Source: an uncultured Actinomycetes bacterium
Lineage (GTDB): Bacteria; Actinomycetota; Acidimicrobiia; IMCC26256; JACDBD01
Length of the DNA stretch: 64,000 nucleotides
Direction of reading: 5' to 3'
Assembly (NCBI GenBank): GCA_963737605.1
Contig: CAVTTE010000001.1
Coordinates: 2,631 to 66,630, forward strand
The notes below the pieces were generated by a model that was not told the DNA's origin, ran no database searches, and saw only the letters and a program-made list of their open reading frames with translations. The stretch's first letter is position 1; each line of letters opens with the position of its first letter. Made by a program: the position numbers and the translations under genes. Of this stretch, positions 1 through 53,516 are shown one piece after another.

Positions 1-630
1 GCCAGCTGGCCTGCGCTCCCGTCGAATCCCCTGAGGGGCGTGCCTACCTCCGTGCGATGGCCGCGGCGGCGAACTACGGGCGTGCCAACCGGCAGCTGCT
101 CTCGGTCGCCGCTCGCGCCGCGTTCGACGAAGCCGGCCTCACGGCCAGCTTGCATCTGCTGTACGACGTCTCGCACAACCTGGCCAAGCTCGAATGGCAC
201 GACGTCAACGAGCATCGACGACTCCTGTGCGTGCACCGCAAGGGCGCGACGCGCGCCCTGCCGCCCGGCCATCCCGACCTCCCGCCGGACCTGGCGGCCG
301 TCGGGCAACCGGTCCTGATCCCGGGATCGATGGGGACCGCGTCCCACGTGCTCGCCGGGGTGCCGGGAGGCGGCGCCTTCCACTCGACCGCTCATGGCGC
401 CGGGCGCGCGATGAGCCGCCACGCGGCGCGCAAGCGGATCCGGGGCGAGGCCCTGCGACGCGAGCTGGAGGCGGAGGGGATCGCGGTGCGGTCGCGCTCG
501 GCGCGTGGGCTCGCCGAAGAGGCGCCCTTCTCCTACAAGGATGTCGACGAGGTCGTGCTCACGTGCGAGCGGGCCGGGACTCGCCCGGCGAGTCGCGCGG
601 TTGCGCCCGATCGGTGTCGTGAAAGGTTGA
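1..630 (+). CDS. rtcB: RNA ligase RtcB, C-terminal ~200 codons (5' end lies left of the window); one frame change near 577
   Basis: Frame is open from base 3 ([31 protein letters not shown]) and continues through ORF 57..650 with RtcB-type motifs ([17 protein letters not shown]). The ORF tail after ERAG is non-homologous. Skipping one base at ~577 gives [17 protein letters not shown]-stop (TGA 628..630), a typical RtcB C-terminus. Confidence 0.85.
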
Positions 631-646
631 GCGTGAGCCACTCAGA

Positions 647-1080
647 ATGATCGGCACCCGGACGCGCTGGTCACCGAGCGGTCTCGCACACCGCGGACGT
701 CATGATCGAGGCGTGGGGTGGAACGGCGCTGGAATGTCTCGAGGAAGCCGCCCGCGCTCTGGTGGAGACCTTCGCAGACGTGAGCAACGTCGCCGCCACC
801 GACACAGTCCCGGTGATGTTCGACCTCGCGGCCGGACGACGAAGAGGCACTCGTCGCCGTACTGGAGGAGATCGTGTACCTGATCGACGCCCGCGAGGCC
901 GTTCCGGTCGACCTCGCGCTGGAAGCGACCGAGGACGGCGGGGTGGCCGGGTACTTCGAGACGGCCGCCGCGTCAACGGTCCCGCTCGGCGGCGCGGCCC
1001 CGAAGGGTGTCTCGCGCTCGGAACTGGAGCTCGGGCACGACCAGGGGCGCTGGCGCTGCCGGGCAGTGATCGACGTCTGA
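647..1080 (+). CDS. Archease (RtcB cofactor family); start uncertain, at least 2 frame changes (~680, ~850)
   Basis: [32 protein letters not shown] (frame of ORF 702..1163) is the archease N-terminal signature. [16 protein letters not shown]...[24 protein letters not shown]-stop (ORF 874..1080) is the C-terminal signature. It lies directly after rtcB. The only ATG (647) is in a third frame. Confidence 0.65.
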
Positions 1081-1095
1081 GGATCGATCGCCAAT

Positions 1096-1109
1096 GGGCC
1101 TTTCGTCAC
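1096..1109. promoter_or_regulatory. Candidate DosR/DevR-type (NarL-family) operator, 5-4-5 palindrome GGGCC TTTC GTCAC
   Basis: It lies in the archease-nadA gap, 71 nt upstream of nadA. It matches the recurrent window motif in 4/5 + 4/5 half-site positions (GGGAC/GTCCC). Confidence 0.25.
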
Positions 1110-1179
1110 GGATTACGCGGGGCGTTCGCCACTGGATGCCCACCTTCCCGAGCGTCACGGTGATGCTCGGAGGTGCACG

Positions 1180-2225
1180 ATGAGCTTCGAGCACGTCGTC
1201 GGCCCGGCGCCCCGGCCCCGGCCGTCGGTCCAGGACACGGAGGCCAGCCGGGCCGTTGCCGCCGACGGCGAGATCCAGTCGATGAGCGAAGCGGAGCTGA
1301 TCGACGGGATCCACCGGCTCCGGCGCGACCGGGAGGCGGTCGTGCTCGCGCACAACTACCAAATCCCGCCGATCCAGGACTTGGCCGACTTCGTGGGCGA
1401 CTCCCTCGAGCTGTCGCAGGAGGCGGCACGTAGCGATGCACCGCTGATCGTGTTCTGCGGGGTGCACTTCATGGCCGAGACCGCCGCGGTCCTGTGTCCA
1501 GGCCAGCGCGTGGTGATCCCCGATCGCCGAGGCAGGTTGCTCGCTGGCGGCGACGGTCACCGCGGACGAGCTCCGGGCGTGGAAGGCCGAGCATCGCCGA
1601 CGCGTTGGTGGTCGCCTACGTGAACACGGACGCCGACGTCAAAGCCGAAGCCGACTACTGCTGCACCTCGGCGAACGCGGTGCAGATCGTCCGGTCGATC
1701 CCCGAGGACCGCGAGATCCTGTTCCTTCCCGACATGTTCCTCGGCCTCTTCGTCGAACGGATGTCAGGCCGTGCACTGCAGCTGTGGTTGGGCGAGTGCC
1801 ACGTGCACGCCGGCATCCGCGCCGACGATGTGTCGGCGTGCCTCGACGCGCATCCAGGCGCCGATCTGCTCCTGCACCCCGAGTGCGGGTGCGTGAGCCA
1901 GTGCCTCTCGGCGCTCGGTGAAGGCGACCTCCCTGCCGAGCGAACCCACATCGTCGGGACCGGCGGCATGGTGCGGCACGCGCGGTCGTGCACCGCGCCG
2001 GTCGACCTCGTCGGCACCGAGGTCGGCCTCCTCCACCGGCTCCGGTCCGAGAACCCCGGCCGACATTTCGTCCCGGTCAAGGAGGACGCCCTCTGCGACT
2101 ACATGAAGACGATCACGCTCCCGAAGCTGTACCGCTCGTTGCGCGATCTCGTCAGCGAAGTGACGGTGCCCGAACCGACCGCGACACGGGCACGGGAGGC
2201 GATCGAGCGCATGGTGGCGGTGTAG
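1180..2225 (+). CDS. nadA: Quinolinate synthase NadA; two +1 frame changes (~1523, ~1597)
   Basis: ORF 1180..1623 ([41 protein letters not shown]) and ORF 1494..2225 ([41 protein letters not shown]) are the N and C parts. The connecting [23 protein letters not shown] lies in the third frame. 1046 nt = 348 codons + 2 extra bases. Confidence 0.85.
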
Positions 2226-2228: not shown

Positions 2229-3545
2229 ATGCCCTTCCGTGACCGACGAGAAGCGGGGCGGCGCCTTGCCGAGGCGCTCGTTGCACCTCCGCGACGAAGT
2301 CCCGATCGTGCTCGGGCTCCCTCGGGGCGGGGTTCCGGTCGCATTCGAGGTCGCGCAGGCCCTCGACGCACCGCTCGACGTCCTGATCGTGCGGAAGCTC
2401 GGCGTTCCTCACCAACCCGAGCTCGGCATGGGCGCGGTCGGCGAGGACGGCGTGCGCGTCCTGAACCCCGAGGTGATCCGCGGGTCGGGCGTCACCGACG
2501 AGGACATCGCGCAGGTCGAGGCACGCGAACGCATCGCGGTCGAGCAGCGGGCGCGCCTGTTCCGCGGCGCGCGGCCCGACGTCTCGTTGGCCGGCCGTAC
2601 CGCCATCATCGTCGACGACGGGCTCGCGACCGGAGGCACGGCACGTGCTGCGATCCAGGTCGCGCGCGTCCACGGAGCCGACCGGGTCGTGCTGGCGGTG
2701 CCCGTCGCGCCTCCTGACACGATCGATGCGCTGCAGAAGCGACGCCGACGAAGTCGTGTGCCTGGAGAGCCCCGAACCGTTCTGGGCCATCGGGGCGTGG
2801 TACGGCGACTTCTCGCCGACCGTGGACCGCGAGGTGATCGATCTGCTCAATGAGGCCCGGAAGGCTCGCGCCGCGGCGGCCGGAGGGAGCGACCCACGCA
2901 TGCACGCCGGCTACGACGGTGACGTCGAGGTGCACGCGGGCGAGCACGTTCTGCCCGGCAGCCTGACCATTCCACCCGGAGCGAGCGGAGTCGTGGTGTT
3001 CGCGCACGGCAGCGGGAGCAGCCGCCACAGCCCGCGCAACCGCTACGTCGCCGATGCGCTGCATCGAGGCGGACTGGGCACGTTGCTCTTCGATCTCCTG
3101 TCGCCCGAGGAGGAGGTCGACCGGGAGAACGTCTTCGACATTCCCCTGTTGGCGGGGCGGCTGGCCGCTGCGACCGACTGGCTCGCGCGCGCAGGCGGCG
3201 GCTCGTGAGCTCGCCGTGGGCTACTTCGGTGCGAGCACCGGGGCCGGCGCCGCGCTGTGGGCTGCGGCAGAGCCGGAGTCGCCGGTGCAGGCGGTCGTGT
3301 CGCGTGGAGGGCGTCCCGACCTCGCCCGGCGGCGTCTCCGAGACGTGCGCGCCCCGACGCTGCTGATCGTCGGGGGCCGGGACGATCTGGTGATCGACCT
3401 GAATCGCGAGGCGGCCGACCACCTGCGCTGCGAGCACCGGCTCGAGATCGTGCCCGGCGCGACGCACCTGTTCGAGGAGCCCGGAACGCTCGAGGTCGTC
3501 GCGGAGCTGGCGTGTCGCTGGTTCGTCGATCACCTCGCAACGTGA
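2229..3545 (+). CDS. Phosphoribosyltransferase fused to a dienelactone-hydrolase-type alpha/beta hydrolase (Rv0571c-like architecture); three +1 frame changes
   Basis: Order of motifs: MPFRDRREAGRRLAEAL (ATG 2229), LRDEVPIVLGLPRGGVPVAFEVA, TAIIVDDGLATGGTARAA (PRPP loop), ADEVVCLESPEPFWAIGAWYGDF, VVVFAHGSGSSRHSPRN, LAVGYFGASTGAGAAL (nucleophile elbow), LIVGGRDD, GATHLFEEPG. Pieces lie in ORFs 2229..2717, 2239..2853, 2645..3208 and 3054..3545. Junctions are at ~2283, ~2740 and ~3190. Confidence 0.8.
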
Positions 3546-3563
3546 CCACACGCCGGACGACGG

Positions 3564-3577
3564 GGCTCCTTCGACCC
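3564..3577. promoter_or_regulatory. Candidate operator of the same family, GGCTC CTTC GACCC
   Basis: It lies in the 84-nt gap upstream of the BON/DUF2267-acs-E1-E2-ACP operon. It shares TTCGACCCTGGGC with the site at 48935. Confidence 0.25.
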
Positions 3578-3628
3578 TGGGCCCGCCGCCGGCTCACGCA
3601 CCGTGAGAGAAGGAGAGAAGGAGGAGCC

Positions 3629-4470
3629 GTGAAGAGGATCCTGCGTCTCATGATCGTCGCCGCCGTGGTGCTCGGCGTGCTCTGGCTTCTGCGTGAAGGC
3701 CGAGCCGCCAAGGCGCACGCGGCGGCCGGGCGCCGGGCCCGATATCTCGGGGGACGGTGGAAGGGGATCCGGTACCGCCTCGCGGGCCGCCGACCCGACC
3801 CATGGGCCAGACGACGACGTCCTGGCCGATCGCGTCCGGTCCGAGCTCGGTCCACTCGAGAAGCGGCTCGACGTGCCTCGCGTCCACGTGCAAGTCCACG
3901 ACCATCACGCGTCACTGCACGGCGACGTGCCGACATGGAAGGTGGCCGACCGTCTCGTCACGGCCGTGCTCCACGTCTCGGGGATCCACGGGGTCGAGTC
4001 GTATCTCCACGTCGGGCTGACGCCAGGCGACACCCGCCCGTCGGAGGGGCGCCTCCACGCCGCCAAGTCAAACGCGCTGCAGACCCTCGTGGGCGCCGCG
4101 ATCCGCGGCGGCGCGCCCGAGGACCGAGCCGTCGCATCGGTGCGCGCGGTGCTCAGTGCGTTCGTGGACCGGGTGCCGACCCCGGAACGTGATCACGTTC
4201 TGGCCCATCTTCCCGCCGACGTCCGCCCGCTGGCGACGCCGCCTCAGCCGGGCCGGCAAGCCTCCACCGCGTGCGAACTGTTCCCGAGCTCGTCGCCGGC
4301 GTGACGGCGCAGGCGGAGCCGGGCGGAAACGGCCTGGCTCGCGGGCACGAAGCCTTGATCACCGAGTCGGTGCTCGCAACGTTGCGTGGTCTCGTGCCCG
4401 AGGAGGCGGACGACATCGCCGCGGTGCTTCCCTCCGAGCTTCGTGCGTTTTGGAACGCGGCCGTGCCGGC

Positions 4471-4474
<4 letters not shown>
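3629..4474 (+). CDS. Membrane-anchored BON-domain / DUF2267-repeat protein; two frame changes (~3800, ~4262)
   Basis: GTG 3629 is preceded by [39 protein letters not shown] is a TM helix. [41 protein letters not shown] is BON-like. [29 protein letters not shown] and [35 protein letters not shown] are DUF2267-like repeats. Pieces lie in ORFs 3257..4192, 3693..4304 and 4271..4474. Confidence 0.55.
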
Positions 4475-6301
<1,827 letters not shown>

Positions 6302-6302
<1 letters not shown>

Positions 6303-7300
6303 TGGAGGCGGCGACACCCGAACCACTCGGCGAGATCGACCCGGATCACGCCCGCCACCTCTACCGGGAGATGCTGCGCATCCGGCGGTTCGAGGAACGA
6401 TGCGTCGAGTTGTACAGCGCGACGCAGATCCGCGGCTTCCTCCATCTCTACATCGGGGAGGAGGCCGTGGCCGCGGGCGTCATGCAGACGCTCGACCCCG
6501 ACGACGCGGTCGTTGCCACCTACCGGGAGCACGGGCACACGCTGGCCCGTGGCGTTCCGGCGGGATCGATCATGGCCGAGATGTACGGGAAGGTCGAGGG
6601 CTGCAGCGGCGGCCGGGGCGGCTCAATGCACCTCTTCGACCTCGATTCGCGCTTCTACGGCGGGAACGCGATCGTGGGGGGCGGCCTGCCGATCGCGGTG
6701 GGCCTCGCGCTCGCCGACAAGATGCAGGGCCATCGGCGCGTGACTGCGTGCTTCTTCGGCGAGGGCGCCGTCGCCGAGGGCGAGTTCCACGAATGCCTCA
6801 ACCTCGCCGCACTGTGGGACCTGCCTGTGTTCTTCTGCTGCGAGAACAACCTGTACGCCATGGGCACGGCTCTCGAGCGTTCGGAATCGGAGATCGACCT
6901 CGCGCTCAAGGCCGCGAGCTACGAGATGCCGGCCTGGTCGGTCGACGGCATGGACGTCGTCGCGGTCGAGGACGCTGCGCGCCGCGTCGTCGAAGGCGTC
7001 CGCGCCGGTGGTGGTCCTCATTTCCTCGAGTGCCGGACGTACCGGTTCCGGGCGCACTCGATGTACGACCCCGAGCTCTACCGCGACAAGGCCGAGGTCG
7101 AAGGAGTGGAAGGTGCGTGATCCCCTCGTCACGTTCGCAGCCCGTCTGGCCGAGGCCGGGATCCTCGACGACGGCGGGATCGCGGCCCTCGAGGGAGAAG
7201 TGCGGCCGAGATCGACGCTGCGGTCGAGTTCGCCGAGGCCGGGACCCTCGAACCGGTGGAGGACGTCACCAAGTTCGTGTACCACGAGGCGCGGGCATGA
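6302..7300 (+). CDS. 2-oxoacid (pyruvate/acetoin/branched-chain type) dehydrogenase E1 alpha subunit; compensating frame changes at ~7093 and ~7205
   Basis: ATG 6302 overlaps the acs stop. Motifs: [43 protein letters not shown] (ThDP site), ENNLYAMGT. The tail [23 protein letters not shown] lies in ORF 7008..7400. The frame then returns for [32 protein letters not shown]-stop (7298..7300). Confidence 0.85.
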
Positions 7301-8301
7301 CCGCAACCGGGACCATCGTGACGACGACGTACCGAGAAGCCATGCGGGAGGCCATCCGCGATGCCCTGCAGCGCGACGAGCGCGTGTTCGTCATGGGTGA
7401 AGACGTCGGGAGGTACGGCGGCTGCTTCGCGGTGACGAAGGGGCTCCTCGCCGAGTTCGGCCCCGAGCGCATCCGCGACACGCCGCTGTCGGAATCCGCG
7501 TTCGTCGGCGCCGGGATCGGCGCCGCTCTCGGCGGCATGCGGCCCATCGTCGAGATCATGACCGTGAACTTCAGCCTGCTCGCGCTCGATCAGATCGTGA
7601 ACAACGCCGCCACCCTGGACCACATGTCGGGTGGCCAGCTGCATGTGCCCCTCGTCATCCGCATGACGACCGGCGCCGGGCGTCAGCTGGCCGCGCAGCA
7701 CTCCCACAGCCTCGAGGGCTGGTACGCGCACATTCCCGGGATCAAGGTGATCGCCCCGGCCACGCTCGAGGACGCCCGCGGCATGCTCTGGACGGCACTC
7801 GAGGATCCCGACCCGGTGCTCGTGTTCGAGCACGGCAGCCTGTACAACACGAAAGGTGAGCTCCCGGCCGATGCCGGCCCGGTCGACATCGACCACGCCG
7901 CCGTGCGACGGCACGGGCGTGACGTCTCGATCATCACGTACGGCGGGACCCTGTCGAAGTGTCTCGCCGCCGCCGACGAGCTGGCGGCGGGAGGCATCGA
8001 CGCCGAGGTTCTCGACCTCCGCACCCTCCGCCCGCTCGACACCGACGCCATCCTCGCCTCGGTCACGACAAGCCGCGCCGCGTGGTGATCGTCGACGAAG
8101 GCTGGCGCAGTGGCAGCATCTCGGCCGAGGTCGAGCGCGCGGGTCATGGAGGGCGCCTTCTACGACCTCGACGCGCCCGTCGCCCGCGTGTGCAGCGCCG
8201 AGGTCCCCATGCCGTACGCGAAGCACCTCGAGGACGCCGCGCTCCCCCAGGTGGGCGGCATCGTGCGAGCGGCGAGAGAGGTGGCGGCGCTCGATGCCTG
8301 A
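7297..8301 (+). CDS. 2-oxoacid dehydrogenase E1 beta subunit; compensating frame changes at ~8068 and ~8137
   Basis: ATG 7297 forms an ATGA overlap with the E1alpha stop. Motifs: [67 protein letters not shown]. The tail [16 protein letters not shown] / [30 protein letters not shown] lies in ORFs 7959..8363 and 8110..8301. Confidence 0.85.
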
Positions 8302-9570
8302 GTTCCGGATGCCCTCGCTCGGCGCCGACATGGACGCCGGCACGATCATCGAATGGCTGGTGAAGCCGGGCGACGAGGTGCACCGCGGCGACATCGTGGC
8401 GGTGGTCGACACCGACAAGGCCGACGTCGACGTCGAGATCTTCGCCGACGGCGTCGTCGACGAGATCCTCGTGCCGCCCGGCGAGAAGGTCGACGTGGGC
8501 ACGCCACTGGCGAGCATCCTGGCGCCGGGCGAGACCGTGCGCGAAGCGAGCACCGGCGGGCCAAGAAGGCCCCAGCCGCCGCGAAGAAGGCGGCCAAGGC
8601 GGCGAGGGCAAAGGCGCCGAGCAAGCAGGCTCCCAAGCGCGCGCCGCGCCGCCGCCCGGCGGCGAAGACGACGCCCGAGACAAGGCCCCCGGCCGCCGAG
8701 CCCGCCCACTCGCCCGTGGTCCGTCGCCTGGCGCGGCACCTCGGCGTCGACCTCGCCGGCCTCGCGGGCACGGGGCCCGGTGGCGCGGTGACCAGAGCCG
8801 ACGTCGAGCGCGCGGCGACGGGAACCGTGGCGGCGCCGCAGGTCTCGTGGGCCGCCCCCGCCACGGCGGAGGCGACGGCCGACGTCGTCGAAGCGCCCGA
8901 CCGGTCGGACGCGATGCGCCGATCGATCGCGGCGCTGATGGCGCGCTCGAAGCGCGAGATCCCCCACTACTACCTCGGCACTCACGTGGACGCGACATCC
9001 GCGCTCGACTGGCTGGAGCACACCAACCTCGAGCGCCCGGTCCCCGAGCGGCTCCTGCCGGCGGCGCTGTTCTTGAAGGCGGTCGCGCTGGCGGCGCGCG
9101 AGGTTCCGCAACTCAATGGATTCTGGGTCGATGACACCTTCCGTCCCGGCGACGGCGTGCACCTCGGCGTCGCGATCTCCCTTCGCCAGGCCGGCGGTCT
9201 CATCGCGCCCGCGATCCACGATGCCGACCGCAAGGACCTCACGACCCTGATGAGCGAGCTGCGCGATCTCGTGACCCGCACCCGCGCCGGCCGGCTTCGC
9301 AGCTCCGAGATGTCGGACCCGACGTTGACGGTCACGAACCTGGGTGACCAGGGTGTGGAAACGGTGTACGGCGTGATCTATCCACCGCAGGTCGCGCTGG
9401 TCGGCGTGGGCAAGATCGTCGAGCGCCCATGGGCCGCCGGCAACATGGTCGGCGTGCGGCGCGTCGCGACGCTCACGCTCGCCGGCGACCACCGCGCGAG
9501 CGACGGTCATACGGGCGCGCAGCTGCTCGCCGCCGTCGATCGATTCCTTCAGGAGCCGGAGAAGCTGTGA
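8294..9570 (+). CDS. Dihydrolipoamide acyltransferase E2 (lipoyl domain - PSBD - catalytic domain); one frame change (~8555)
   Basis: ATG 8294 overlaps the E1beta end by 8 nt. The lipoyl site is [17 protein letters not shown], followed by an Ala/Lys/Pro linker. The PSBD is [33 protein letters not shown]. The catalytic motif is [17 protein letters not shown]. Pieces lie in ORFs 7856..8791 and 8353..9570. Confidence 0.85.
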
Positions 9571-9818
9571 ACGACACGGAAGTCCGATCCCAGGTCCTGC
9601 AGGCACTGGCGCAGGTTGCGCCCGAAGCCGACCTCGAGGGGCTCGATCCGAGCGGGGACTTCCGCGAGGAGCTCGACCTCGACTCCATGGACATCCTCAA
9701 CCTCGTCATCGGCCTCCACGAGGCGACGGGCGTCGACATCCCCGAGCGCGACTACCCACAACTCGTGACGCTGGACGCGTGCGTCTCCTACCTGTCGGAG
9801 CGACTCACGCCCGCCTGA
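9567..9818 (+). CDS. Free-standing acyl carrier protein (phosphopantetheine-binding), translationally coupled to E2
   Basis: GTG 9567 overlaps the E2 stop (GTGA). The product is 83 aa (distal part of ORF 9429..9818). ELDLDSMDILNLVIGLHE is a carrier-protein helix II with the DS(M) serine. Confidence 0.7.
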   Translation: MNDTEVRSQVLQALAQVAPEADLEGLDPSGDFREELDLDSMDILNLVIGLHEATGVDIPERDYPQLVTLDACVSYLSERLTPA

Positions 9819-9833: not shown

Positions 9834-10277
9834 TCACGAGGCGGTGTCGAGAGCCTCGGTCAGCCTTCCGAACAGGTCGCGCATCGACACCACGCCGACA
9901 ACACGGCCGTCATGGTCGATGACGACGAGGTGACGCACGTCCTTCTCGACCATCCTCCGCGCGGCATCGAGGACGCGATCCCCTGCGTCGACCGTGACGA
10001 TCTCCTCTGTCATCACGTCCGCGGCCCAGACCGCGTCCGGGTCGGCATCACCGGACAGCGCTGCGAGCACATCGCGCTCCGAGACGATCCCGACCCGGTC
10101 GTCGCCGCGCCGCACGAGGGCGCATCCCAGCGCCAGCTCGGACAAGATGCCTGCCAGCGAGCGCAGAGTCATCTTCTCGTCGACGGAGACGGGGGCGTCG
10201 GCGACGAGCGGTCCGAGCGTGCGCAGCGCCTCTGTCACCACTTGGCGGCCCGCGGCGTCAAGCCGATCGGGATTCAC
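9834..10277 (-). CDS. CBS-pair domain protein
   Basis: ORF 9834..10277 (-), 147 aa, intact. It has two CBS repeats (GIVSERDVLAAL, VVGVVSMRDLF). Confidence 0.75.
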   Translation of the reverse strand: MNPDRLDAAGRQVVTEALRTLGPLVADAPVSVDEKMTLRSLAGILSELALGCALVRRGDDRVGIVSERDVLAALSGDADPDAVWAADVMTEEIVTVDAGDRVLDAARRMVEKDVRHLVVIDHDGRVVGVVSMRDLFGRLTEALDTAS

Positions 10278-11247: not shown

Positions 11248-11270
11248 AGGGCCGACCGTCGGTCCCGCCG

Positions 11271-14366: not shown

Positions 14367-14373
14367 AGCGGGA

Positions 14374-44973: not shown

Positions 44974-46380
44974 TGACCATGGAGCGGCTGGGCGCCCTCG
45001 ATGCCGAGTTCCTGCACATGGAGGACGGGATCGCGCACATGCACGTCGCCGGCGTCTCGGTGTTCGAGGGCCCGGCCCCGACCGTGGACGAGCTCGGGCG
45101 GCTGCTCACCGCCAAGCTCCACCTCATCCCCCGCTACCGGCAGCGCGTGCGGTTCGCTCCCCTCGCGCTCGGCCGACCGGTGTGGCAGGACGACCCGCAC
45201 TTCAACCTCGCGTACCACCTCCGCCATACGGCGCTGCCCCCGCCGGGCGGCGACGCCGACCTGTGCCGGCTCATGGGCCGGCTCATGTCGCAGCCACTCC
45301 ATCGCGATCGCCCGCTGTGGGAATCCTGGATGGTCGAGGGCTTGCCCAAGGGTCGCTGGGCCGTGATCTCCAAGGTCCACCACTGCATGGTCGACGGGAT
45401 CTCCGGTGTGGAGCTCCTCCACGTGCTGCTCGCCGTGGATCGTGACGAGCCGTTGCCCGAGCCGCAGCCGTGGAAGCCGGCGCCCGAGCCCTCCGGCCCC
45501 GCAGTGGTGGTCGACGCGTGGGAGGGCCTCGCCGGCGACCTCACTGCTGCGCTCCGACGGGTACCGGCGGCGCTGCGCGACCCGCTCGGCGCGGGGCGGT
45601 CCGTCGCGCGGACGAGCCAGGGTGCTCTCCGGTTCGGGCGCCATCTGGCGACCACACCACCGCTCTCGATCGAGGGAACGATCGGGCCGAACCGTGCGTG
45701 GGCGCATTCCTCGGCGAAGATCGACGACATCCGGGTCATCCGCGGCGCGTTTGACGGCACGTTGAACGATGTGGTGCTCGCAGCCGTCGCGGGTGGATAC
45801 CGCGAAGCTGCTGCTCCGTCGCGGCGACGACGCCGACCACGCGGTGCTTCGCTCCCTCGTGCCCGTCTCGGTGCGTTCCGAGGACGCGCGTGGCGATCCC
45901 GGCAACCAGGTGTCGGCGTTCCTGTACGAGCTCCCGGTCCATGTGGCCGACCCGCTCGAGCGGCTCCGCGCGGTCCACGAGGAGATGAGCGATCTCAAGG
46001 AGTCGCACATGGCAGATGCGGGCGAAGCAGCCGTGACCATCGGCGAGCTCGCGCCGCCGATGATCGTAGGGTTGGTTTCCCGAGTCGGCTCGCGCATCAT
46101 GCACCGACTGCCGCAACGCTCGGTCAACACGGTGACGACCAACGTTCCCGGACCCCAGTTTCCGCTGTATTGCCTGGGACGGGAGATGCTCGAGTACTAC
46201 CCCTACGTTCCTCTCAGTCATGGCGTGCGGGTCGGCACCGCCGTCCTCTCGTACAACGGTCGTCTCGCGTTCGGGATCACCGGCGACTTCGACACCGCAT
46301 CCGACGTCGGCGTCCTCGCCCGGGCGATCAAGGCCGGCATCAGAGAGCTCAAGAAGCTCGCGACGAGACAACCTCGGTGA
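44973..46380 (+). CDS. Wax ester synthase / diacylglycerol acyltransferase (WS/DGAT, Tgs family); one frame change (~45790)
   Basis: ATG 44973 overlaps the upstream stop (TGATG). Motifs: LDAEFLHMEDGIAHMHVAGV, KVHHCMVDGISG (HHxxxDG), then NVPGPQFPLYCLGREMLEYYPYVPL. Pieces are ORF 44970..47969 (first ~275 codons) and ORF 45769..46380. Confidence 0.85.
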
Positions 46381-47969
46381 CCGACAACCTCGCCGATGCG
46401 GTCGACTACCTGCACCGCGGGTGGGCCGTTCTCCCGCTGCACGGGATCCGATCCGGGCGCTGCACCTGCGGCCGCCGCGACTGCCCGGCGCCGGGAAAGC
46501 ACCCGAGGATCCGGTGGGAGACCTACCAGTGGCGCGCGCCGCGGGAGGCCGACCTCGAGGCATGGTTCCACCGGTGGCCCGACAGCAACCTCGGCGTCGT
46601 CACCGGGACCATCTCCGGCTTGGTCGTGCTCGACATCGATCCCCGCAACGGCGGTGACGACGAGATGAGCAAACTCGAGCACCTCCACGGCGCCCTCCCC
46701 CCGACGCCGGAAGTCCGCACGGGCGGCGGCGGTGTCCATCTCTACTTCGAGTCCCCGGAGCATCCGATCGCGACGACGATCCTCGGCCCCGGGGTCGACC
46801 TGAAGGCCGACGGCGGCCTCGTCGTGGTTCCACCCAGCGTGCACGCCTCGGGTCACCGCTACGAGTGGGAGCCCGGCGCCGACCCCGACGCGCTGCCGCT
46901 CGCCGACCTGCCCGCCTGGTTGCACCCGCCGGGGTCCGAGGGCGGGCGGGGCGGCGCGGGCGCGCCGGCTCCGCCGCGGTCGACCGCCGACCGCGTCGAG
47001 TTCGCCGATCTCTGGCGCGCGCTCGGCATCGACGTCGTCCCCGGCGACCGCTACTACCGGTGCCCGTTCCACGACGACCATCATCCGTCGCTCCACGTCG
47101 ACGCCGAGGGATGCCGGTGGTACTGCTTCGGATGCCGCCGCGGCGGAGGCCCGGGGCGGCTGCGCCGCCTGGTCGCCCAGAAGGTCGGCGTGTCCGCACG
47201 TCGGCCGGCCGTGTCCCCGCCGCCTGACGACGCGGCGCCGGCGACGACCTGGCTCCAGTGGCCGACGATCCAGCCCGGCGGCACGCAGGAAGTCGTCGGC
47301 GAAGCTGCGCACGTCGATGCGCTCGAGGCCGTCGCCGGCGGCCGGACCTGGGCCGGGCCACGCCACCGTCTCGTCTCTGCCGCGCTCGAGTCGGAGCCGG
47401 CCAACCCGCACGACCCCGACGCGGTACGTGTCCGCGTGGGCGGCGAGACCGTGGGCTATCTACCTCGTGACGACGCGCCGCGGTTCCGCACGCTGGTGAC
47501 CGAGCTTGCGGCGAGACACCGTGCCGCGATCGCGAGAGCCCGCCTCACCGGCGGCTGGGATCGAGGACCGCGCGGTCGCGGCGCGCTCGGGATCGAGCTG
47601 GACGTCGACCCCGACCTCGTTCCGCTCCGGCCCGGTACGCCCTTCCTGCCCGACGAGATCGCGGTCGACGTCGTCGGCGAGGACGGGCATCAGGGACCGC
47701 TCGAGCTCCTCGTGGAACACGCCCCGGGGCGAATCCACGTCGCGACGCTGACGGAGGCGATCGCAGGCCAGGGCCCGCGCATCTCGGTCGAGATCGACGG
47801 TGTGGTGGTCGGGGTGCTCGGCCGCACGGCGACCGAGCGCTATCTGCCGGTGGTTCGAGCCGTCACCGCCGGCGGCTTCCCGACCACGTGTGAGGCGATC
47901 GTGGCCCGCGGCGCGAGGAAGTACGAGTGCCGGATCCTCCTCCCCCGCGTCAGTGGGCTCATGGCGTAG
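46377..47969 (+). CDS. Bifunctional primase-polymerase (PrimPol) domain, CHC2 zinc finger and two HIRAN-like modules
   Basis: GTG 46377 overlaps the WS/DGAT stop (GTGA). PrimPol motifs: GWAVLPL, CPAPGKHPRI, SGLVVLDIDPRNGG (DxD), TGGGGVHLYF, VVVPPSVHASGHRYEW. The zinc finger is YRCPFHDDHHPSLHVDAEGCRWYCFGC. The HIRAN-like modules are EVVGEAAHVDALE...SEPANPHDPDAVRVRVGGETVGYLPRDDA and VVGEDGHQGPLE...ISVEIDGVVVGVLGR. 530 aa, no frame problem seen. Confidence 0.75.
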   Translation: MTDNLADAVDYLHRGWAVLPLHGIRSGRCTCGRRDCPAPGKHPRIRWETYQWRAPREADLEAWFHRWPDSNLGVVTGTISGLVVLDIDPRNGGDDEMSKLEHLHGALPPTPEVRTGGGGVHLYFESPEHPIATTILGPGVDLKADGGLVVVPPSVHASGHRYEWEPGADPDALPLADLPAWLHPPGSEGGRGGAGAPAPPRSTADRVEFADLWRALGIDVVPGDRYYRCPFHDDHHPSLHVDAEGCRWYCFGCRRGGGPGRLRRLVAQKVGVSARRPAVSPPPDDAAPATTWLQWPTIQPGGTQEVVGEAAHVDALEAVAGGRTWAGPRHRLVSAALESEPANPHDPDAVRVRVGGETVGYLPRDDAPRFRTLVTELAARHRAAIARARLTGGWDRGPRGRGALGIELDVDPDLVPLRPGTPFLPDEIAVDVVGEDGHQGPLELLVEHAPGRIHVATLTEAIAGQGPRISVEIDGVVVGVLGRTATERYLPVVRAVTAGGFPTTCEAIVARGARKYECRILLPRVSGLMA

Positions 47970-47976: not shown

Positions 47977-48876
47977 TCAGCCCGCGTGCTGCTCCGTACC
48001 CCGGTCTCCCGCGGGACCGGGCCCGGACGGCAACCGGCGACGTCGGCGGCTTCCGTCGAGCACACGGACGACGTTGGTCATGACCTCGCTGAAGGAATCG
48101 GGCTCGTCGATCAGCCACCCGTGGCCCCCGCTCAGCGTCGTGGGCCGCACGTCTAATGCCTCACAGAGCGCGTCGGTGGACGCTTCCGGAATCACGCGGT
48201 CGCGTGTGCCCCACAGCACGACGACGGGCAGACCACGACCACGGAGCTCCTCGAGCTCCTCGGTCAGGTCGGCGGTGCGGGCGATTCGCGCGGCTCGCCA
48301 GAAGGCTCGCGGCGCCCGGACCAGGCTTGGAACGGCTTCTGAGACGATGACGGGAAGGACCCGCGTGAGCTGGCGTATCGGGAGAAGGTCGCGGGACAGG
48401 TGCAGTCCCCAGTCCCACAGCGGCCGTTCGGCCATCGATCGCAGCGTCGATCCCTTCTTCCACGCTGACCCGCCGACCGAGTTGACGAGCACGAGCCCGC
48501 GCACATGGGACGGCCGCTCGTAGGAGAACACGATCGCGACGCCACCGCCGAACGAGTGACCGATGAGCACCGCCGGCTCGTCGACCCCGACCGCGTCCAG
48601 GAACGCGGCGAGCCACTCGGCGTACCCCGCGAACGACCGGCGAACACGGGGCAAAGGCGGCGTGCCGCCGAAACCGGGAAGGGCGGGCGCGACCACGCGC
48701 ACGCCTTCCCTCGCCAAGAGGCGGAGCGCCGGCTCGTACGCCCGGTCGTCGATCCCCCATCCGTGCAAGAAGACGACCGGCAACCCGGTCCCGGCGGTGC
48801 CGTACCGCGCCTCCCGGCCCTCGACCACCGTCGAGCGGCGGGACCATAACGATGCCTCCGGCGCTCCATCATCCAC
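47977..48876 (-). CDS. Alpha/beta hydrolase
   Basis: ORF 47977..48876 (-), 299 aa, intact. Motifs: LPVVFLHGWG, VLIGHSFGGGVA (nucleophile elbow), VVVLWGTRDRVIP, GGHGWL. Confidence 0.7.
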   Translation of the reverse strand: MDDGAPEASLWSRRSTVVEGREARYGTAGTGLPVVFLHGWGIDDRAYEPALRLLAREGVRVVAPALPGFGGTPPLPRVRRSFAGYAEWLAAFLDAVGVDEPAVLIGHSFGGGVAIVFSYERPSHVRGLVLVNSVGGSAWKKGSTLRSMAERPLWDWGLHLSRDLLPIRQLTRVLPVIVSEAVPSLVRAPRAFWRAARIARTADLTEELEELRGRGLPVVVLWGTRDRVIPEASTDALCEALDVRPTTLSGGHGWLIDEPDSFSEVMTNVVRVLDGSRRRRRLPSGPGPAGDRGTEQHAG

Positions 48877-48934
48877 AGATCACAGCCTGCCGACCGTGTC
48901 GGCGACGGCACAGGGGCGATGGCCCACGGCGACC

Positions 48935-48948
48935 GGGCCATTCGACCC
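48935..48948. promoter_or_regulatory. Candidate operator, GGGCC ATTC GACCC
   Basis: It lies ~60 nt upstream of the minus-strand alpha/beta hydrolase gene (start 48876). Confidence 0.25.
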
Positions 48949-48986
48949 TGGGCGATCCTCTAGCCCCGCTGCGGTCCGCGGGCGCT

Positions 48987-49227
48987 CTACTCGAACTCCT
49001 CGACCAGTCGCCCCGGGCGACAGGCAAACCCCTGGTCCTCGAGTCGCCACGACGAGTCGCAGCAGCCACAGCGTGCCCACGCGTTCTCCCCGGCGTCTCG
49101 AGGCGGGCCGGAGTGGTTCCTCGGGGCACACCGGGCAGTAGCCGGCGGCGATGCTGACGACCACTCCGGTCCCCTCGGCGTCGCGCGGCGGTCGATGGTC
49201 CCTCGAGCACCCGAAGTAGAGCCGCAC
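48987..49227 (-). CDS. Possible small Cys-rich protein (~80 aa) needing one frame change; very uncertain
   Basis: GTG 49227 lies 8 nt after AGGAGG. The N part is VRLYFGCSRDHRPP...GYCPVCPEE (ORF 48880..49275 frame). An alternative frame gives ARCGCCDSSWRLEDQGFACRPGRLVEEFE-stop (TAG 48987..48989). 241 nt is not a multiple of 3. I recognise no family. Confidence 0.2.
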
Positions 49228-49310
49228 GTCCGTCACCTCCTGCAACGAGCATTGCCCCCATCGTCGTCTGAACACGAAGGAAACACGACGGGCGGAGGAC
49301 CTGCCGCCCG

Positions 49311-49324
49311 GGGTCCTCCGTCCC
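49311..49324. promoter_or_regulatory. Candidate operator, GGGTC CTCC GTCCC, embedded in a 9-bp inverted repeat CGGAGGACC(N10)GGTCCTCCG (49293..49320)
   Basis: It lies 37-50 nt upstream of the P-type ATPase start at 49361. Confidence 0.3.
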
Positions 49325-49360
49325 TATTGACCCGGGGGGCGCTGCTGCGATGCTTGTCCG

Positions 49361-52300
49361 ATGGGCGCGCTCGACTGGTTCCCCCCGCTTCGTCTGCTTC
49401 CGCTGCGGCGCACCCGCCGGAGGTGGTGCACGGCCGGTCGCGTCCACTTCGAGCTGCGCCAGGTCCCGGCGGCGGATGCGCCCGGCTACGGAGCGCAGGT
49501 GGAAGCGACGCTGGCCGACATCGACGCCGTCGACTGGGCGGAGGTCAATCCGCATCTCCTGCGGGTCGTGGTGGCGCACGACCCCCGCGTCGTCACGACC
49601 GACGAGCTGGAAGCGCGCGCTCGAACAGGCCGAGGCCGAGTGCGGCGCCGACCGCTACGGGTTCCGCACCGAAGGTCCCGAGCACCCGGGTGACTACGAA
49701 CCGATCGTGCGCGACTTCCTTTCGCTGGGTGCCGACGTCGTCGGCCTCGGCCTCGCGCTCGTCGGGCGGGCGCGCCGGTTCCGCCCCCTGCCCATCGAGA
49801 TCGACGTCGCCGCGCTGGTGTCGGTCGTCGAGGGAGCCCCTCGGGTACGTCGCCTCGTCGAGCGCCGGGTCGGCTCTCCGCTCGCCGACCTGGGCCTGAG
49901 TGTCGCGAACGCGGTCGGACAGGGACTGGCGCAGGGCCCGCTCGGGCCCGTCGTCGACATCGCCCACCGCGTGTCGCTCTACGGCGAGCTCGTCGCCCGC
50001 CGGCCGCGCCTGGGAGCGGCGCGAGCCCGAGTTGTGCGAGAAGCCGACCGCCGGGGGCATCACGCCGCCCCCGTCCGACCCACGACCCTGCCCCGTGCCG
50101 CGCGGCCCGGTCGAGACGTACGCCGATCGCGCGTGGTTCGGGTCCCTCGCCGGGTTCGGACTCGCGTTCGCCATCACCAGGCGCATGGATCGCGCCGTCG
50201 CCGCGCTCTACGCCGGGCTCCCCAAGGCGGGCCGATTGGGACGCGAGGCGTTCGCGGCCCAGCTCGGGCGATCGCTCGCCGACCGCGGCGTGATCCCGCT
50301 CGATCCCTCGGCACTGCGGATGCTGGACCGCGTCGACTGTCTCCTCGTCCAGGCGGACAGCGTGCTCGAAGACGACGATGACGGTACGTTGCGTCCCGGC
50401 GCCGACGAGGTGCTGGCGGCCGCGCAGCGGGCCGGACTGCGCACCCTCGTCGCCGGCGGTGATGCCGACCACGCGGCGCGTCTGCCGGTCGACGGCACGC
50501 TTCCCGGCGGCGACGCCGAACTGGCGCGGGCGATACGGGCCGAACAGGCCGACGGGCGCGTCGGTCTGCCTGATCGCGTCGAGAGCGTCGACGGCGTTGG
50601 CGGCCGCCGACTGTGCCATCGGCTTGTGTCGTCCCGGCGCCGAGCCGGCCTGGGGCGCGGACTTGCTCTGCGCCGACGACCTCGCTCCAGCCTTCCTCGT
50701 CGTCTCGGCCGTGCCGGAGGCCCGGGCGGTGAGCCGGGAGAGCGTCGTGCTCGCCGGAGCGGGCGCGGCGGGCGGCCTGCTCCTCGCCTTCGGAGGGCTC
50801 CTGCCCGGCACGACGCAGCGCGCGACCACGGCTGTGAACGCGGCGACGGCGATGGCCATCGTGAACGGCGCGCGTCGCGGAATCGGCGTCACCCGCCGAG
50901 CGGTGCCCGTGCGTGTCGATCGCACGCCCTGGCACGCGCTCGAGGTCGAAGATGTCCTCCACTTCGTCGGTTCCTCTCTCGATGGTCTTCCCGAAGACGA
51001 GGCTCGGCAGCGGGCGACACCACACACCTCCGAGTCGCCGCCCGCAGCGCAGTTCACGCGGGCCGTCGTCGAGGAGCTCGCGAATCCGCTGACGCCGGTC
51101 CTCGGTGCCGGCGCCGCGCTGTCGGCGGCGGTCGGATCATTTGGCGACGCGGCCATGGTCGGCGGCGTGATGGTGTTGAACTCGATCGTCGGCGGCGCGC
51201 AACGTCTGCGGGCCGATCGCGCGATCGCCGCCCTCGTCCGGCGGAGACAGCGCTCCGTGAGCGTCGCTCGCGGCGGCCGAGACCGGAACGTGAGCTCCGA
51301 CGATCTCGTCGTGGGAGACGTGATCCGCCTGCAGTCGGGCGAGTCCGTACCGGCCGACTGCCGGATCATCGGCGGCGGCCCGCTCGAGGTGGACGAGTCG
51401 AGCCTCACCGGCGAGTCCGTTCCCGTGGCGAAGAACGCCTCACCGACCGACGCGGCCCTCGTCGCGGAGAGGACGTCCATGGTCTACGAGGGCACGTCGA
51501 TCGCCGCCGGCGAGGCCGCAGGCGTGGTCGTCGCGGTCGGCGACGCGACCGAGGCCCGCCGCAGCGTGCTGCTCGGTGGGCCTCCGCCCTCCAGCGGCGT
51601 CGAAGCCCGTCTGCGTTCGCTCACCGCGCTCACCATTCCGGTGTCGCTGGGGGCCGGCGCCGCCGTCGTCGCGATCGGCATGTTGCGGGGACGCTCGATG
51701 CGGCAGACGATCGGCGCGGGCGTGAGCCTCGCGGTCGCCGCCGTGCCCGAAGGGCTGCCGCTGCTGGCGACCGTCGCGCAACTCGGCGCCGCCCGCCGCC
51801 TTTCGAGCCGCGGTGCGCTGGTGCGGAACCCGCGCGCGATCGAGGCCCTCGGCCGGGTGGACGTCGTCTGCGCCGACAAGACCGGGACGCTGACCGTCGG
51901 TCATATCGAGACCCAGGTCGTCTCCGACGGTGAGACCGAAGCGCCAATCGGCGCCGTCCCGCCGGGATTGCGGCGGGTTCTCGCGGTCGCGCTGCGGGCG
52001 ACACCCGATGCGGGCCACGGACGGCTCCCGCACCCCACCGACCGCGCGATCCTGCGCGGCGCAGAGGTGGCGGCGGTCACCGTGCGAGACGGTGGGGAGG
52101 ACTGGGGGCGCCTCTCGGAGATGCCTTTCGAGCCGGCGCGTGGTTTCCACGCCGTCCTCGGCGACGACGGCAACGGGCTCGGCGTCAGCGTGAAGGGCGC
52201 ACCCGAGGTGCTGCTGCCACGCTGCAACCGTTGGTCGCGTCCCGCCGGCGACGTGCCGCTCACCGAAGATGACCGGGCCCGCTTTGCCCGCGTGGCCGGC

Positions 52301-53516
52301 GATCTGGCGCGGCGAGGCTTGCGCGTGCTGGCGCTGGCAGAACGCAAAGCAGAGCACCATGACGATCTCGCCGACCACCGCGTCCGCGGGCTGGCCTTCT
52401 CCGGCTTCGTCGGCCTCAGTGATCCCGCCCGCGACACCGCAGCCGAAGCGATCCGCAACCTCCGTGACGCCGGGGTCGACGTCGTGATGATCACCGGCGA
52501 TCACCCGAGCACCGCCGAGGGCATCGCCGCCGAGCTCGACCTGCTCGACGGCGGAGCGATCACGACCGGTGCGGAGATCGACACTTTGTCCGACGACGAG
52601 CTGACAGAAGCGGTCGCCGCGACGCACGTCTTCGCGCGTGTCACCCCGGCCCACAAGGTGCGAATCGTCGCCGCGTTCCAGCGTTCCGGGAGGGCGGTCG
52701 CGATGACCGGTGACGGCGCCAACGACGCGCCCGCCATCCGGCTCGCTGACGTCGGCATCGCGCTCGGCAAGCGGAGCACCGCCGCCGCCCAGGATGCGGC
52801 CGACCTCGTCGTGGTCGACGAGCGCATCGAGACCATCGTCGACGCCGTGCTCGAGGGACGCGGCCTCTGGGCCTCCGTACGGGACGCGGTCGCGGTGCTC
52901 GTCGGAGGCAACCTCGGCGAGATCGCGTTCACGTTGCTCGGCACGATGGTCGACGGGACGTCGCCGCTGAACGCCCGCCAGCTGTTGCTCGTGAACCTGC
53001 TCACCGACGCCGCGCCGGCGCTCGCGCTCGCGCTGCGCGCACCGCGGCGAGCTTGCACCGGAGGCGCTCTTGCGGGAAGGCCCCGAGGCATCCCTCGGCC
53101 GCAGCCTCGACCGGGCGATCGTGTGGCGTGGGGTGGCGACCGCCGGCGGGGCGACGGGCGCCTACATCGCGGCGCGTCTCACCGGGACGCCGGGGAGAGC
53201 GCGCACCGTCGCGCTGGTCGCGCTGGTCGGAGCACAGCTGGGTCAGACGCTCGTCGCCGGCGGCCGGAGCCCGACGGTGATCGCGGCCGGGCTCGGATCG
53301 ACCGCAGTCCTCGCCGGCATCGTGCAGACGCCGGGCATCAGTCAGTTCTTCGGGTGCCGACCCCTCGGACCGGTGGCATGGGCCACCGGGCTCTCGGCCG
53401 CCGCCGGCGCGACCGCGGGCGCGGTCGTGGCGCCCCGACTCGTCGAATCGCTCGCCGAAGTGCTGCGCGACCGGGCGGGTGTGCGCGTGCCCGAAGCGCT
53501 GCTCCCGGCGCGTTGA
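49361..53516 (+). CDS. Very long cation-translocating P-type ATPase (CtpI-like N-terminal extension); four +1 frame changes (~49612, ~50000, ~50565, ~53050)
   Basis: Motifs: RVHFELRQV...DAVDWAEVNPHLLRVVV (N-terminal module), LTGESVPV, VVCADKTGTLT (phospho-Asp), MITGDHPSTA, MTGDGANDAPAI. The C-terminal TM region lies in ORF 53070..53516. Pieces lie in ORFs 49361..49693, 49350..50381, 49900..51933, 50378..54139 and 53070..53516. 4156 nt = 1384 codons + 4 extra bases. Confidence 0.8.

Follow-up and report, generated by a model that had tools for sequence, protein, structure and literature searches.

The 64-kb stretch of DNA analysed here (the window), from contig CAVTTE010000001.1 of an uncultured Acidimicrobiia bacterium, raised the question of why so many gene families known from the dormancy regulon of Mycobacterium tuberculosis, which is under the control of the response regulator DosR (also named DevR, and OsdR in Streptomyces coelicolor), stood together in one block. 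Acidimicrobiia are abundant and mostly uncultured bacteria of soil, water and wastewater, and their survival of oxygen fluctuation is poorly known. The window had an even composition with 70% G+C. The closest matches of its phosphoenolpyruvate (PEP) synthase came from Acidimicrobiia metagenome-assembled genomes (MAGs), with an identity of at most 73-74%, and relatives of the window sequence were present in soil and groundwater metagenomes. We considered it likely that the window belonged to a regulon island of the DosR (DevR/OsdR) type, carried by a soil member of the Acidimicrobiia. Namely, it was most likely a DosR-controlled island for low-oxygen survival, of the kind known from Mycobacterium and Streptomyces.

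The first-pass annotation of the window had argued for a DosR-type system from gene content alone. All the families on its list, and several more, were found by Pfam and NCBIfam scans of candidate and concatenated open reading frames (ORFs); their coordinates are collected in Table 1. They included RtcB with archease, a PRTase-dienelactone hydrolase fusion of the Rv0571c type, Hsp20, CBS-pair proteins with an adjoining M50-CBS protease, single and tandem universal stress proteins (USPs), PPOX-family proteins, a WS/DGAT enzyme and a P-type ATPase. The formate/nitrite transporter (FNT) and pyruvate:ferredoxin oxidoreductase (PFOR) genes, PpsA, a TreT-like glycosyltransferase and GAPDH were likewise present, and so were the interleaved lipid genes (two KAS III enzymes, an acyl-CoA ligase, an ACP and a PfaA-like polyketide synthase, PKS). 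Beyond that list, we identified DUF1918 upstream of GAPDH, a PatA-like GNAT/acyl-CoA synthetase, an operon similar to Acs and pyruvate dehydrogenase (PDH) genes, NadA, a BON and DUF2267 protein, and a fusion of HTH_31 to a PPOX domain. Where M. tuberculosis counterparts had been named, family membership was confirmed but specific closeness was not: in searches of PDB, the tandem USP did not reach Rv2623 at E<1e-3, and the second CBS protein matched Rv2626c (E=3e-7) only as the 11th hit. The WS/DGAT protein was 35-40% identical to its M. asiaticum counterpart encoded at the tgs1 position.

Gene content was accompanied by a regulatory signal. A palindrome of 5-4-5 geometry with the consensus (A)GGGACCTTCGGCCC(T), sharing both geometry and half-site with the M. 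tuberculosis Dev box, was present in 9-10 intergenic regions of the window, and a longer consensus, GGGACCTTCGGC(C/T)C, was common to the intergenic sites. There were three exact matches to GGGMC-N4-GKCCC, all of them intergenic. We built a position matrix from box matches in other genomes and scanned it over the window. Intergenic DNA, which made up 3.1% of the window, received 9 of the 14 hits with at least 10 bits (binomial p about 4e-11) and 7 of the 8 hits with at least 12 bits (p about 2e-10). The box at 11268 lay between the hsp20-CBS-CBS genes and the divergent M50-acyl-CoA ligase-TreT-PpsA-ABC genes. Weaker second sites were found 21-23 bp from the primary one at three promoters (1093/1116, 11246/11268 and 54511/54532), and two good sites stood 40 bp apart at 54471/54511. 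Searches of the intergenic DNA for Crp/Fnr and Rex boxes found none. The strongest box (39683) was shared by the liv operon and a leftward pair of DUF6206 and class-III aminotransferase genes (37439-39600, minus strand).

These sites were also similar to those of a characterized regulator. The box at 39683, AGGGACCTTCGGCCCC, was identical to the OsdR sites predicted for SCO0167/SCO0216 in S. coelicolor (PMC5069765, Table 1), and the window consensus was equal to the site predicted upstream of SCO5979, CGGGACCTTCGGCCCT (PMC5069765). OsdR has been reported to bind the SCO5978-SCO5979 intergenic probe in an electrophoretic mobility shift assay, as well as an intergenic region between USP and pyruvate-phosphate-dikinase genes (PMC5069765).

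Moreover, the boxes were conserved in other genomes. Window positions 18070-35716 could be aligned throughout with locus L241, a contig of MAG MFD04944.bin.2.40, the nucleotide identity being 92.6%. The boxes at 23614 and 26977 were retained there inside otherwise diverged spacers, and the latter belonged to a block of about 50 nt that was conserved without any change. Among 80 ppsA loci (1.45 Mb in total), we counted 36 box matches with at most one mismatch, while about 4 were expected from base composition; 14 of the 36 fell 30-430 bp upstream of ppsA. The matrix placed a box within 600 bp upstream of 37 of 76 ppsA genes of other genomes, compared to about 7 expected. For other families we used 160 loci with a chance expectation of about 6%. 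Boxes preceded homologues of GAPDH/DUF1918 (10/13), the PRTase-hydrolase (5/8), Hsp20 (3/5), the tandem USP (7/16), PPOX proteins (19/51), the single USP (10/30) and the P-type ATPase (8/39). The ABC ATPase, taken as a control, had a box upstream in 3 of 29 cases and operon-internal genes had none, while PatA homologues had one directly upstream in only 1 of 20. A 25-bit box was located directly upstream of PFOR in one locus (L118), and a 24-bit box preceded a WS/DGAT homologue in a Microthrixaceae locus. Further boxed genes in these loci encoded an erythromycin-esterase family protein, beta-CASP nucleases, SQR-like oxidoreductases and flavodoxin.

One additional case came from outside Actinomycetota. 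A MAG labelled Candidatus Dormiibacterota (L080) carried a 23.6-bit box at 8118, 250 bp upstream of ppsA (8371). This box could be due to gene transfer, to erroneous binning or to a system that is distributed more widely.

As a cross-check we used the devR locus of M. asiaticum, whose DevR was 94% identical to that of M. tuberculosis; the latter species was not among the 80 loci matched by DevR. The same matrix recovered a tandem pair of boxes 21 bp apart at the expected Rv3134c-devRS promoter, and another box immediately before the WS/DGAT gene that occupied the tgs1 position.

A candidate regulator was found in the relatives. In one Acidimicrobiales MAG (L023), a response regulator matched the DevR structure 3C3W with E=1.4e-79, whereas the next best response regulator reached 1e-42. 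It was 60% identical to M. tuberculosis DevR and retained the recognition helix EKTVKNYV, which presumably holds the base-contacting residues K179, K182 and N183 of the DosR-DNA structure. Its gene was 1.4 kb from ppsA and both genes had boxes upstream. We found 80 further DosR orthologues. Most belonged to Acidimicrobiia, including Microthrixaceae and Iamia, and some were in the MAGs with the closest ppsA genes. Within 10 kb of these orthologues, the families of the window recurred: PPOX proteins in 42 loci, single USPs in 30, PatA in 15-17, P-type ATPases in 13, and PFOR, WS/DGAT, Hsp20, M50, CBS and TreT in single loci. For example, the gene order was M50-Hsp20-USP-PPOX-USP-DosR-PatA in L103, and USP-USP-PatA stood near the DosR orthologue in L118. 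Kinases adjoining the orthologue had GAF-HisKA_3-HATPase (L098) or PAS-HisKA_3-HATPase (L121) architecture, with one sensor domain, not the two GAF domains of the DosS/DosT type. Another response regulator near ppsA (L005) was of a generic NarL type with VraR as the best PDB match, and was not used as a DosR candidate.

The neighbourhoods of these orthologues had further features. The PatA-like protein adjoined the DosR orthologue in 15-17 of the 80 loci (e.g., L098, L103, L118, L124 and L133), which suggests a conserved link of protein acetylation to the DosR system. NirK-like multicopper nitrite reductases (Cu-oxidase genes in L098 and L118) and an arginine deiminase with carbamate kinase (L103:7840-10001) were also located beside DosR orthologues. 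The window lacked these further modules of anaerobic energy metabolism.

Taken together, a model of the regulon could be proposed from these comparisons. The source genome would encode, outside the window, an orthologue of M. tuberculosis DevR, a response regulator of the NarL family. A sensor kinase of the GAF or PAS type with HisKA_3 would activate this regulator when the oxygen or redox state dropped; hypoxia or redox stress would thus be the signal. The activated regulator would bind the 5-4-5 boxes in at least nine promoter regions and switch on about ten transcription units. One part of the output would be protection and repair (USPs, Hsp20, CBS-pair proteins, the M50-CBS protease, PPOX-like flavoproteins, RtcB-archease and DUF1918). 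Another would be oxygen-independent carbon flow through PFOR and the formate/nitrite channel, PEP synthase, GAPDH, the acetyl-CoA ligase/2-oxoacid dehydrogenase genes, NAD synthesis and PatA-type acetylation. Storage and lipid remodelling may be provided by TreT, WS/DGAT, acyl-CoA ligase, KAS III and the PfaA-like synthase, and ion homeostasis by the P-type ATPase and TerC.

Several observations weighed against the DosR reading. No response regulator or histidine kinase was encoded in the 64 kb (tblastn for a DevR homologue gave E>2), and only 8 of the 80 DosR orthologues had a box in the 450 bp preceding the regulator gene. The GGGAC-N4-GTCCC core, exact or degenerate, was not enriched window-wide relative to shuffled sequences, and the box signal resided only in the position of the matches and in the extended consensus. 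The matrix itself was partly circular because it was derived from matches to a pattern first noticed in the window. In M. tuberculosis, every promoter has at least two adjacent Dev boxes (PMC3177182), unlike most window promoters, which had one clear box only; with a threshold of 4 bits, the matrix scan gave none in second position at 23614, 26977, 30872, 39683 or 48932, although the secondary sites of M. tuberculosis are poorly conserved and a matrix may miss such sites. Furthermore, homology to the M. tuberculosis members appeared to be at the family level only. Some of these points would fit a coincidental likeness, in which stress and carbon genes of common families were regulated independently. 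USP, Hsp20, CBS, PPOX and P-type ATPase proteins do belong to large and common families, the tandem USP and CBS proteins were not specifically near their M. tuberculosis namesakes, the core pattern lacked window-wide enrichment and the window had no regulator gene. Nevertheless, the box statistics made coincidence very unlikely: the boxes had a strong intergenic bias, and in dozens of genomes they were retained in front of the homologous genes. Moreover, the same families recurred around DosR orthologues, and the rarer M. tuberculosis architectures were shared as well (the PRTase-hydrolase fusion, M50-CBS beside a CBS pair, RtcB beside archease, and DUF1918). It was also conceivable that the genes formed a co-regulated stress regulon whose boxes were read by another factor, such as the HTH_31-PPOX fusion or a NarL-family paralogue with a non-oxygen signal (nutrient exhaustion, development or nitrate). 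The island did encode a DNA-binding protein fused to a domain resembling a flavin/F420-type sensor, Streptomyces OsdR was linked to development and stress and not strictly to hypoxia (PMC5069765), and, as noted, a box immediately preceding the regulator gene was rare among DosR orthologues. However, the half-site GGGAC/GGGCC and the 5-4-5 spacing were those of DevR/OsdR-bound sites, the matrix recovered bona fide mycobacterial Dev boxes, and DosR orthologues with the conserved recognition helix were physically linked to boxed genes in relatives. Since the motif was identical to DevR/OsdR sites, we regarded a different regulator as unlikely.

The third alternative concerned the integrity of the genes. 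At least 30 single-base frame changes were present in the 64 kb, roughly one per 1-2 kb, and most genes longer than about 300 aa were divided among 2-6 reading frames. Gene calling by composition (GC3 and codon models) kept splitting genes because the sequence itself contained real frame changes, and therefore concatenated ORFs were scanned against Pfam instead. The sites of insertion or deletion were not homopolymers. Such a load would be expected of a decaying pseudogene block in which the frameshifts were real and the genes non-functional. However, there were no in-frame stops, GC3 was maintained in every fragment, and intact single ORFs of other genomes matched the window in two or three frames. 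In PFOR, the frame changes at 32580, 32906/33039-33040, 33342, 33785/33786 and 34704 were one-base differences from contigs of four independent metagenomes. The L241 sequence differed from the window at the same PFOR sites and had one open frame of 1325 codons (stop to stop); its FtsX, KAS III and FNT genes were intact as well. Between the frameshifted PFOR and its L241 counterpart, substitutions were distributed 23/17/108 over codon positions 1/2/3, with 98 synonymous and 41 non-synonymous codon changes, as in unbroken genes. Among contigs at least 98% identical to the window, none spanned the frame-change sites 32580, 33342, 33786 and 34704, while at 32906 near-identical contigs continued without the extra base. 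In addition, near-identical hsp20 and CBS transcripts were present in metatranscriptomes. Given the selection pattern, it was very unlikely that the island was a pseudogene block. The frameshifts were most likely errors of this assembly and not gene decay, judging from the intact genes of relatives together with substitutions that still followed the pattern of purifying selection. This frameshift load would make automated annotation of the sequence misleading.

Several assignments in Table 1 depended on resolving these frames. The archease match (PF01951) appeared only once two reading frames were joined. The CBS domain of the M50 protein (E=8e-6) became visible only after deleting one base at 12295, and a related transcript contig also lacked this base. 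In 8 other genomes, the PRTase-hydrolase was encoded by one uninterrupted ORF (465-534 aa) that matched all three window frames, and the Acs, E1, E2 and ACP genes were intact single ORFs in relatives. The latter block also adjoined ppsA in 8-11 other genomes, including Myxococcota-labelled MAGs (L041 and L055), in which no box was seen upstream of ppsA. The DUF1918 protein matched PDB entry 2A7Y, which is M. tuberculosis Rv2302, the paralogue of the DosR-regulated Rv0569. DUF1918 and GAPDH formed a single ORF in the window and two ATGA-overlapping genes in L241, the window linker being 8 bases shorter; either a real recent gene fusion or an assembly artefact would account for this. The HTH_31-PPOX fusion was possibly a local regulator inside the island, perhaps flavin- or F420-sensing. 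In 42 of 80 loci, a homologue was located no more than 10 kb from the DosR orthologue, although these matches may mostly concern the PPOX part.

Table 1. Genes and Dev/OsdR-type boxes of the window (positions in nucleotides of the 64-kb stretch; box scores from the position matrix).
Feature	Position	Strand	Evidence and remarks
RtcB RNA ligase, C-terminal 216 aa, cut by window start	1-650	+	PF01139 E=8.5e-65; NCBIfam RtcB family
Archease (RtcB cofactor), one frameshift near 840	about 655-1080	+	PF01951 E=1.1e-21, whole profile
Pair of weak boxes with a 23-bp distance, before nadA (nadA/PRTase-hydrolase)	1093-1135		GGGCCTTTCGTCAC and GGGGCGTTCGCCAC (8.9 bits)
Quinolinate synthase NadA, one frameshift	1180-2225	+	PF02445 E=1.5e-87 in two frames
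PRTase and alpha/beta (dienelactone-type) hydrolase fusion, Rv0571c-type architecture, two frameshifts	2239-3545	+	Pribosyltran, Hydrolase_4
Box upstream of BON/DUF2267 gene	3561-3580		10.6 bits
BON and DUF2267 protein	3693-4474	+	Pfam
Acs-like ligase, 2-oxoacid dehydrogenase E1alpha/E1beta/E2, ACP; several frameshifts	4500-9818	+	AMP-binding, E1_dh, Transket_pyr, Biotin_lipoyl, 2-oxoacid_dh, PP-binding
CBS pair	9834-10277	-	Pfam CBS; leftward unit with second CBS pair and Hsp20
CBS pair (second)	10258-10668	-	Pfam CBS
Hsp20	10749-11174	-	Pfam HSP20
Primary box GGGACCTTCGGCTC (11268) and weaker site 22 bp off (11246)	11246-11287		18.4 bits
M50 metalloprotease, CBS domain at the C-terminus, architecture of the Rv2625c type, frameshift at 12295	11320-12447	+	PF02163 E=3.5e-24
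Long-chain acyl-CoA ligase and TreT-like trehalose synthase, frameshifts	12476-15742	+	AMP-binding, AMP-binding_C_3, TreT_GT1, Glycos_transf_1; NCBIfam TreT
TreT-like glycosyltransferase alone	14374-15742	+	TreT_GT1, Glycos_transf_1; NCBIfam TreT
PEP synthase PpsA, intact	15810-18122	+	NF005057 814.7 bits (equivalog cut-off 598); TIGR01418
ABC ATPase and FtsX/MacB-type permease	18124-21649	+	Pfam
HTH_31 and Pyridox_ox_2 (PPOX-like) fusion, one frameshift	21525-22185	-	Pfam E=8e-25, E=3.9e-9 on joined frames
PPOX-like (Pyridox_ox_2) protein	22229-22660	-	Pfam; 40% identical to gene at Rv3129 position of M. asiaticum
Tandem USP	22657-23514	-	Pfam
Box GGGACCTTCGGCTC between divergent USP units	23614-23633		20.6 bits
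Single-domain USP	23689-24150	+	PF00582 E=3.6e-30
PatA-like GNAT and ADP-forming acyl-CoA synthetase, frameshifts	24159-26935	-	Acetyltransf_1, CoA_binding_2, Succ_CoA_lig, ATP-grasp_5
Box GGGCCATCGGTCCC between patA and divergent DUF1918-GAPDH	26977-26990		Exact GGGMC-N4-GKCCC match
DUF1918 (Rv0569/Rv2302 family), then type I GAPDH (27278-28279)	27074-28279	+	Pfam; PDB 2A7Y E=4.5e-12; TIGR01534 above cut-off
Two KAS III-like condensing enzymes	28471-30851	-	ACP_syn_III, ACP_syn_III_C; NCBIfam FabH subfamily
Box between KAS III and divergent FNT-PFOR	30872-30891		12.7 bits
Formate/nitrite transporter (FNT)	30949-31873	+	Pfam
PFOR, spread over about 6 frames	31870-35474	+	Pfam; TIGR02176
DHO_dh-like protein, alpha/beta hydrolase (+); DUF6206, class-III aminotransferase (-)	35471-39600	both	Pfam
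Box AGGGACCTTCGGCCCC between aminotransferase and divergent liv(-WS/DGAT)	39683-39702		20.9 bits
Liv-type branched-chain amino-acid ABC transporter	39786-44973	+	Peripla_BP_6, BPD_transp_2 x2, ABC_tran x2
WS/DGAT wax-ester/triacylglycerol synthase, one frameshift	44970-46380	+	WS_DGAT_cat E=5.5e-64, WS_DGAT_C E=3.9e-29
Prim-Pol, CHC2 zinc ribbon and HIRAN protein, between WS/DGAT and hydrolase	46377-47969	+	Pfam
Alpha/beta hydrolase	47977-48876	-	Pfam
Two boxes between hydrolase and divergent P-type ATPase-TerC	48932-49327		15.3 and 10.9 bits
Long P2-type P-type ATPase (about 1390 aa, frameshifts; 49350-53516) and TerC	49350-54467	+	E1-E2_ATPase, Hydrolase, Cation_ATPase_C, TerC
Boxes 54471 and 54511 and weak site 54532, before ACAD-PKS genes	54471-54551		13.6 bits (54471), 14.7 bits (54511)
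Acyl-CoA dehydrogenase (ACAD) joined to PfaA-like synthase (KS-AT-KS-ACPx3-KR-DH), cut by window end	54597-64000	+	Pfam; TIGR02813 N-terminus

The alignment with L241 also provided the synteny comparison that the first-pass annotation had called for: gene order was complete over 17.6 kb. A mobile island was considered as another reading and rejected on the even composition, the absence of an integrase and of tRNA genes (a tRNA search of the 64-kb window found none), and this complete synteny with a 92.6%-identical relative. The Prim-Pol, CHC2 and HIRAN gene was the sole gene resembling a mobile-element or DNA-repair function, with no integrase, repeats or tRNA nearby, and it was probably outside the regulon. 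The island continued past 53516, since the boxes at 54471/54511 preceded ACAD-PKS genes that reached the window end. Transcription of close relatives was observed in nature: metatranscriptome contigs from rhizosphere and soil had one mismatch over 206-230 nt to the CBS genes (10090-10319) and to hsp20 (10870-11075), and one related transcript contig covered hsp20 plus its leader. This shows that a near-identical population transcribed the hsp20 and CBS genes; the trigger was not addressed by these contigs.

For the P-type ATPase, the first-pass annotation had preferred a CtpI-like protein over CtpF, and by its length the protein did resemble the long mycobacterial CtpH/CtpI type; its best NCBIfam match was of the Ca type. 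A single ORF of 1571 aa in another genome (L006) matched it and shared an N-terminal extension of about 600 aa (49350-51200) that had no Pfam match. The PfaA-like synthase carried three tandem ACP repeats of 341 bp that were 96% alike (61065-62048), and its first KS shared an ORF (54597-57518) with the acyl-CoA dehydrogenase domain. Only the N-terminal 330 positions of TIGR02813 matched, with 200 bits against a cut-off of 1010, the gene being fragmented and cut by the window end. It was similar to PfaA-type polyunsaturated fatty acid (PUFA)/polyketide synthases in the KS-AT-...-tandem ACPs-KR-DH order, in the TIGR02813 N-terminal match and in the three near-identical ACPs, but differed in its score below the family cut-off, in the acyl-CoA dehydrogenase of the same ORF and in its truncated and frameshifted state.

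The locus offered a testable sequence-level model of a regulon, in which about ten promoters carried boxes and the candidate regulator came from a defined family. The new candidate members (PEP synthase, PFOR/FNT, GAPDH-DUF1918, PatA and the PfaA-like synthase) would tie a 'dormancy' regulator to fermentative carbon flow and storage lipids. There was also a functional pointer for M. tuberculosis genes of unknown role, namely Rv0571c, Rv0569, Rv2625c/26c and Rv2630/31, which appeared conserved with the box over a great evolutionary distance. We tentatively suggest, as a possibility, that the core of the DosR regulon was ancient, shared across Actinomycetota and metabolic rather than 'dormancy-specific', and that in Acidimicrobiia the regulator also drove trehalose, triacylglycerol/wax-ester and PfaA-type lipid synthesis. 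This core may have comprised ppsA, GAPDH/DUF1918, the PRTase-hydrolase fusion, PFOR/FNT, the P-type ATPase and PPOX-like proteins. On this reading, low oxygen would induce fermentation together with storage in soil bacteria that are abundant and nominally aerobic. Our literature search found no paper pairing DosR with Acidimicrobiia.

The DevR (DosR) dormancy regulon of M. tuberculosis comprises about 48 genes (PMC3177182). The island shared with it the box geometry and half-site of the GGGAC-N4-GTCCC type, divergent promoters with a shared box, and the families of USPs, Hsp20 (hspX), the PRTase-hydrolase fusion (Rv0571c), DUF1918 (Rv0569), PPOX-like proteins (Rv3129 position), WS/DGAT (tgs1) and a P-type ATPase (ctpF). 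Two local arrangements were also the same as in the operons described there, in that a CBS pair adjoined M50-CBS (Rv2626c-Rv2625c) and archease adjoined RtcB (Rv2630-Rv2631) (PMC3177182). The second sites 21-23 bp away at three window promoters were reminiscent of the Dev boxes that M. tuberculosis carries in tandem (PMC3177182), whereas most island promoters had a single clear box in place of two to four in tandem. On the other hand, the island was one block of at least 64 kb and not about ten scattered loci, and the regulator and kinase were not adjacent to its genes. Nitroreductases (acg, Rv3131), narK2/narX, fdxA, nrdZ and pfkB were not seen in the window, while PFOR/FNT, PpsA, GAPDH, TreT, PatA, the Acs-PDH-like operon and the PfaA-like synthase were additional. 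The proteins were alike at the family level, with 30-40% identity where measured.

In S. coelicolor, the core regulon of OsdR/OsdK forms one cluster, SCO0167-SCO0219 (PMC5069765). Therefore, a compact island outside mycobacteria had a precedent, and the description of the window as unusually compact for a non-mycobacterial lineage, made in the first-pass annotation, was overstated. Its underlying DosR-type reading was strengthened by the boxes, their conservation, the recovery of mycobacterial Dev boxes and the DosR orthologues in relatives. Both islands were clustered DosR-type systems of non-mycobacterial actinobacteria; USP genes dominated, and variants of the OsdR consensus AGGGCCGATCGGCCCT were identical to window sites. 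Another common trait was a PEP/pyruvate dikinase, whose S. coelicolor gene (SCO0208) was boxed and bound by OsdR in vitro. The S. coelicolor cluster differed in containing the regulator, the kinase, the nitrate reductase Nar2 and a nitrate transporter, all absent from the window, and in being tied to development and sporulation. In comparison, the window island added PFOR/FNT, PpsA, TreT, PatA, and storage-lipid and PKS genes, and came from a different class, Acidimicrobiia. With this locus, DosR/OsdR biology would be extended to a third actinobacterial class.

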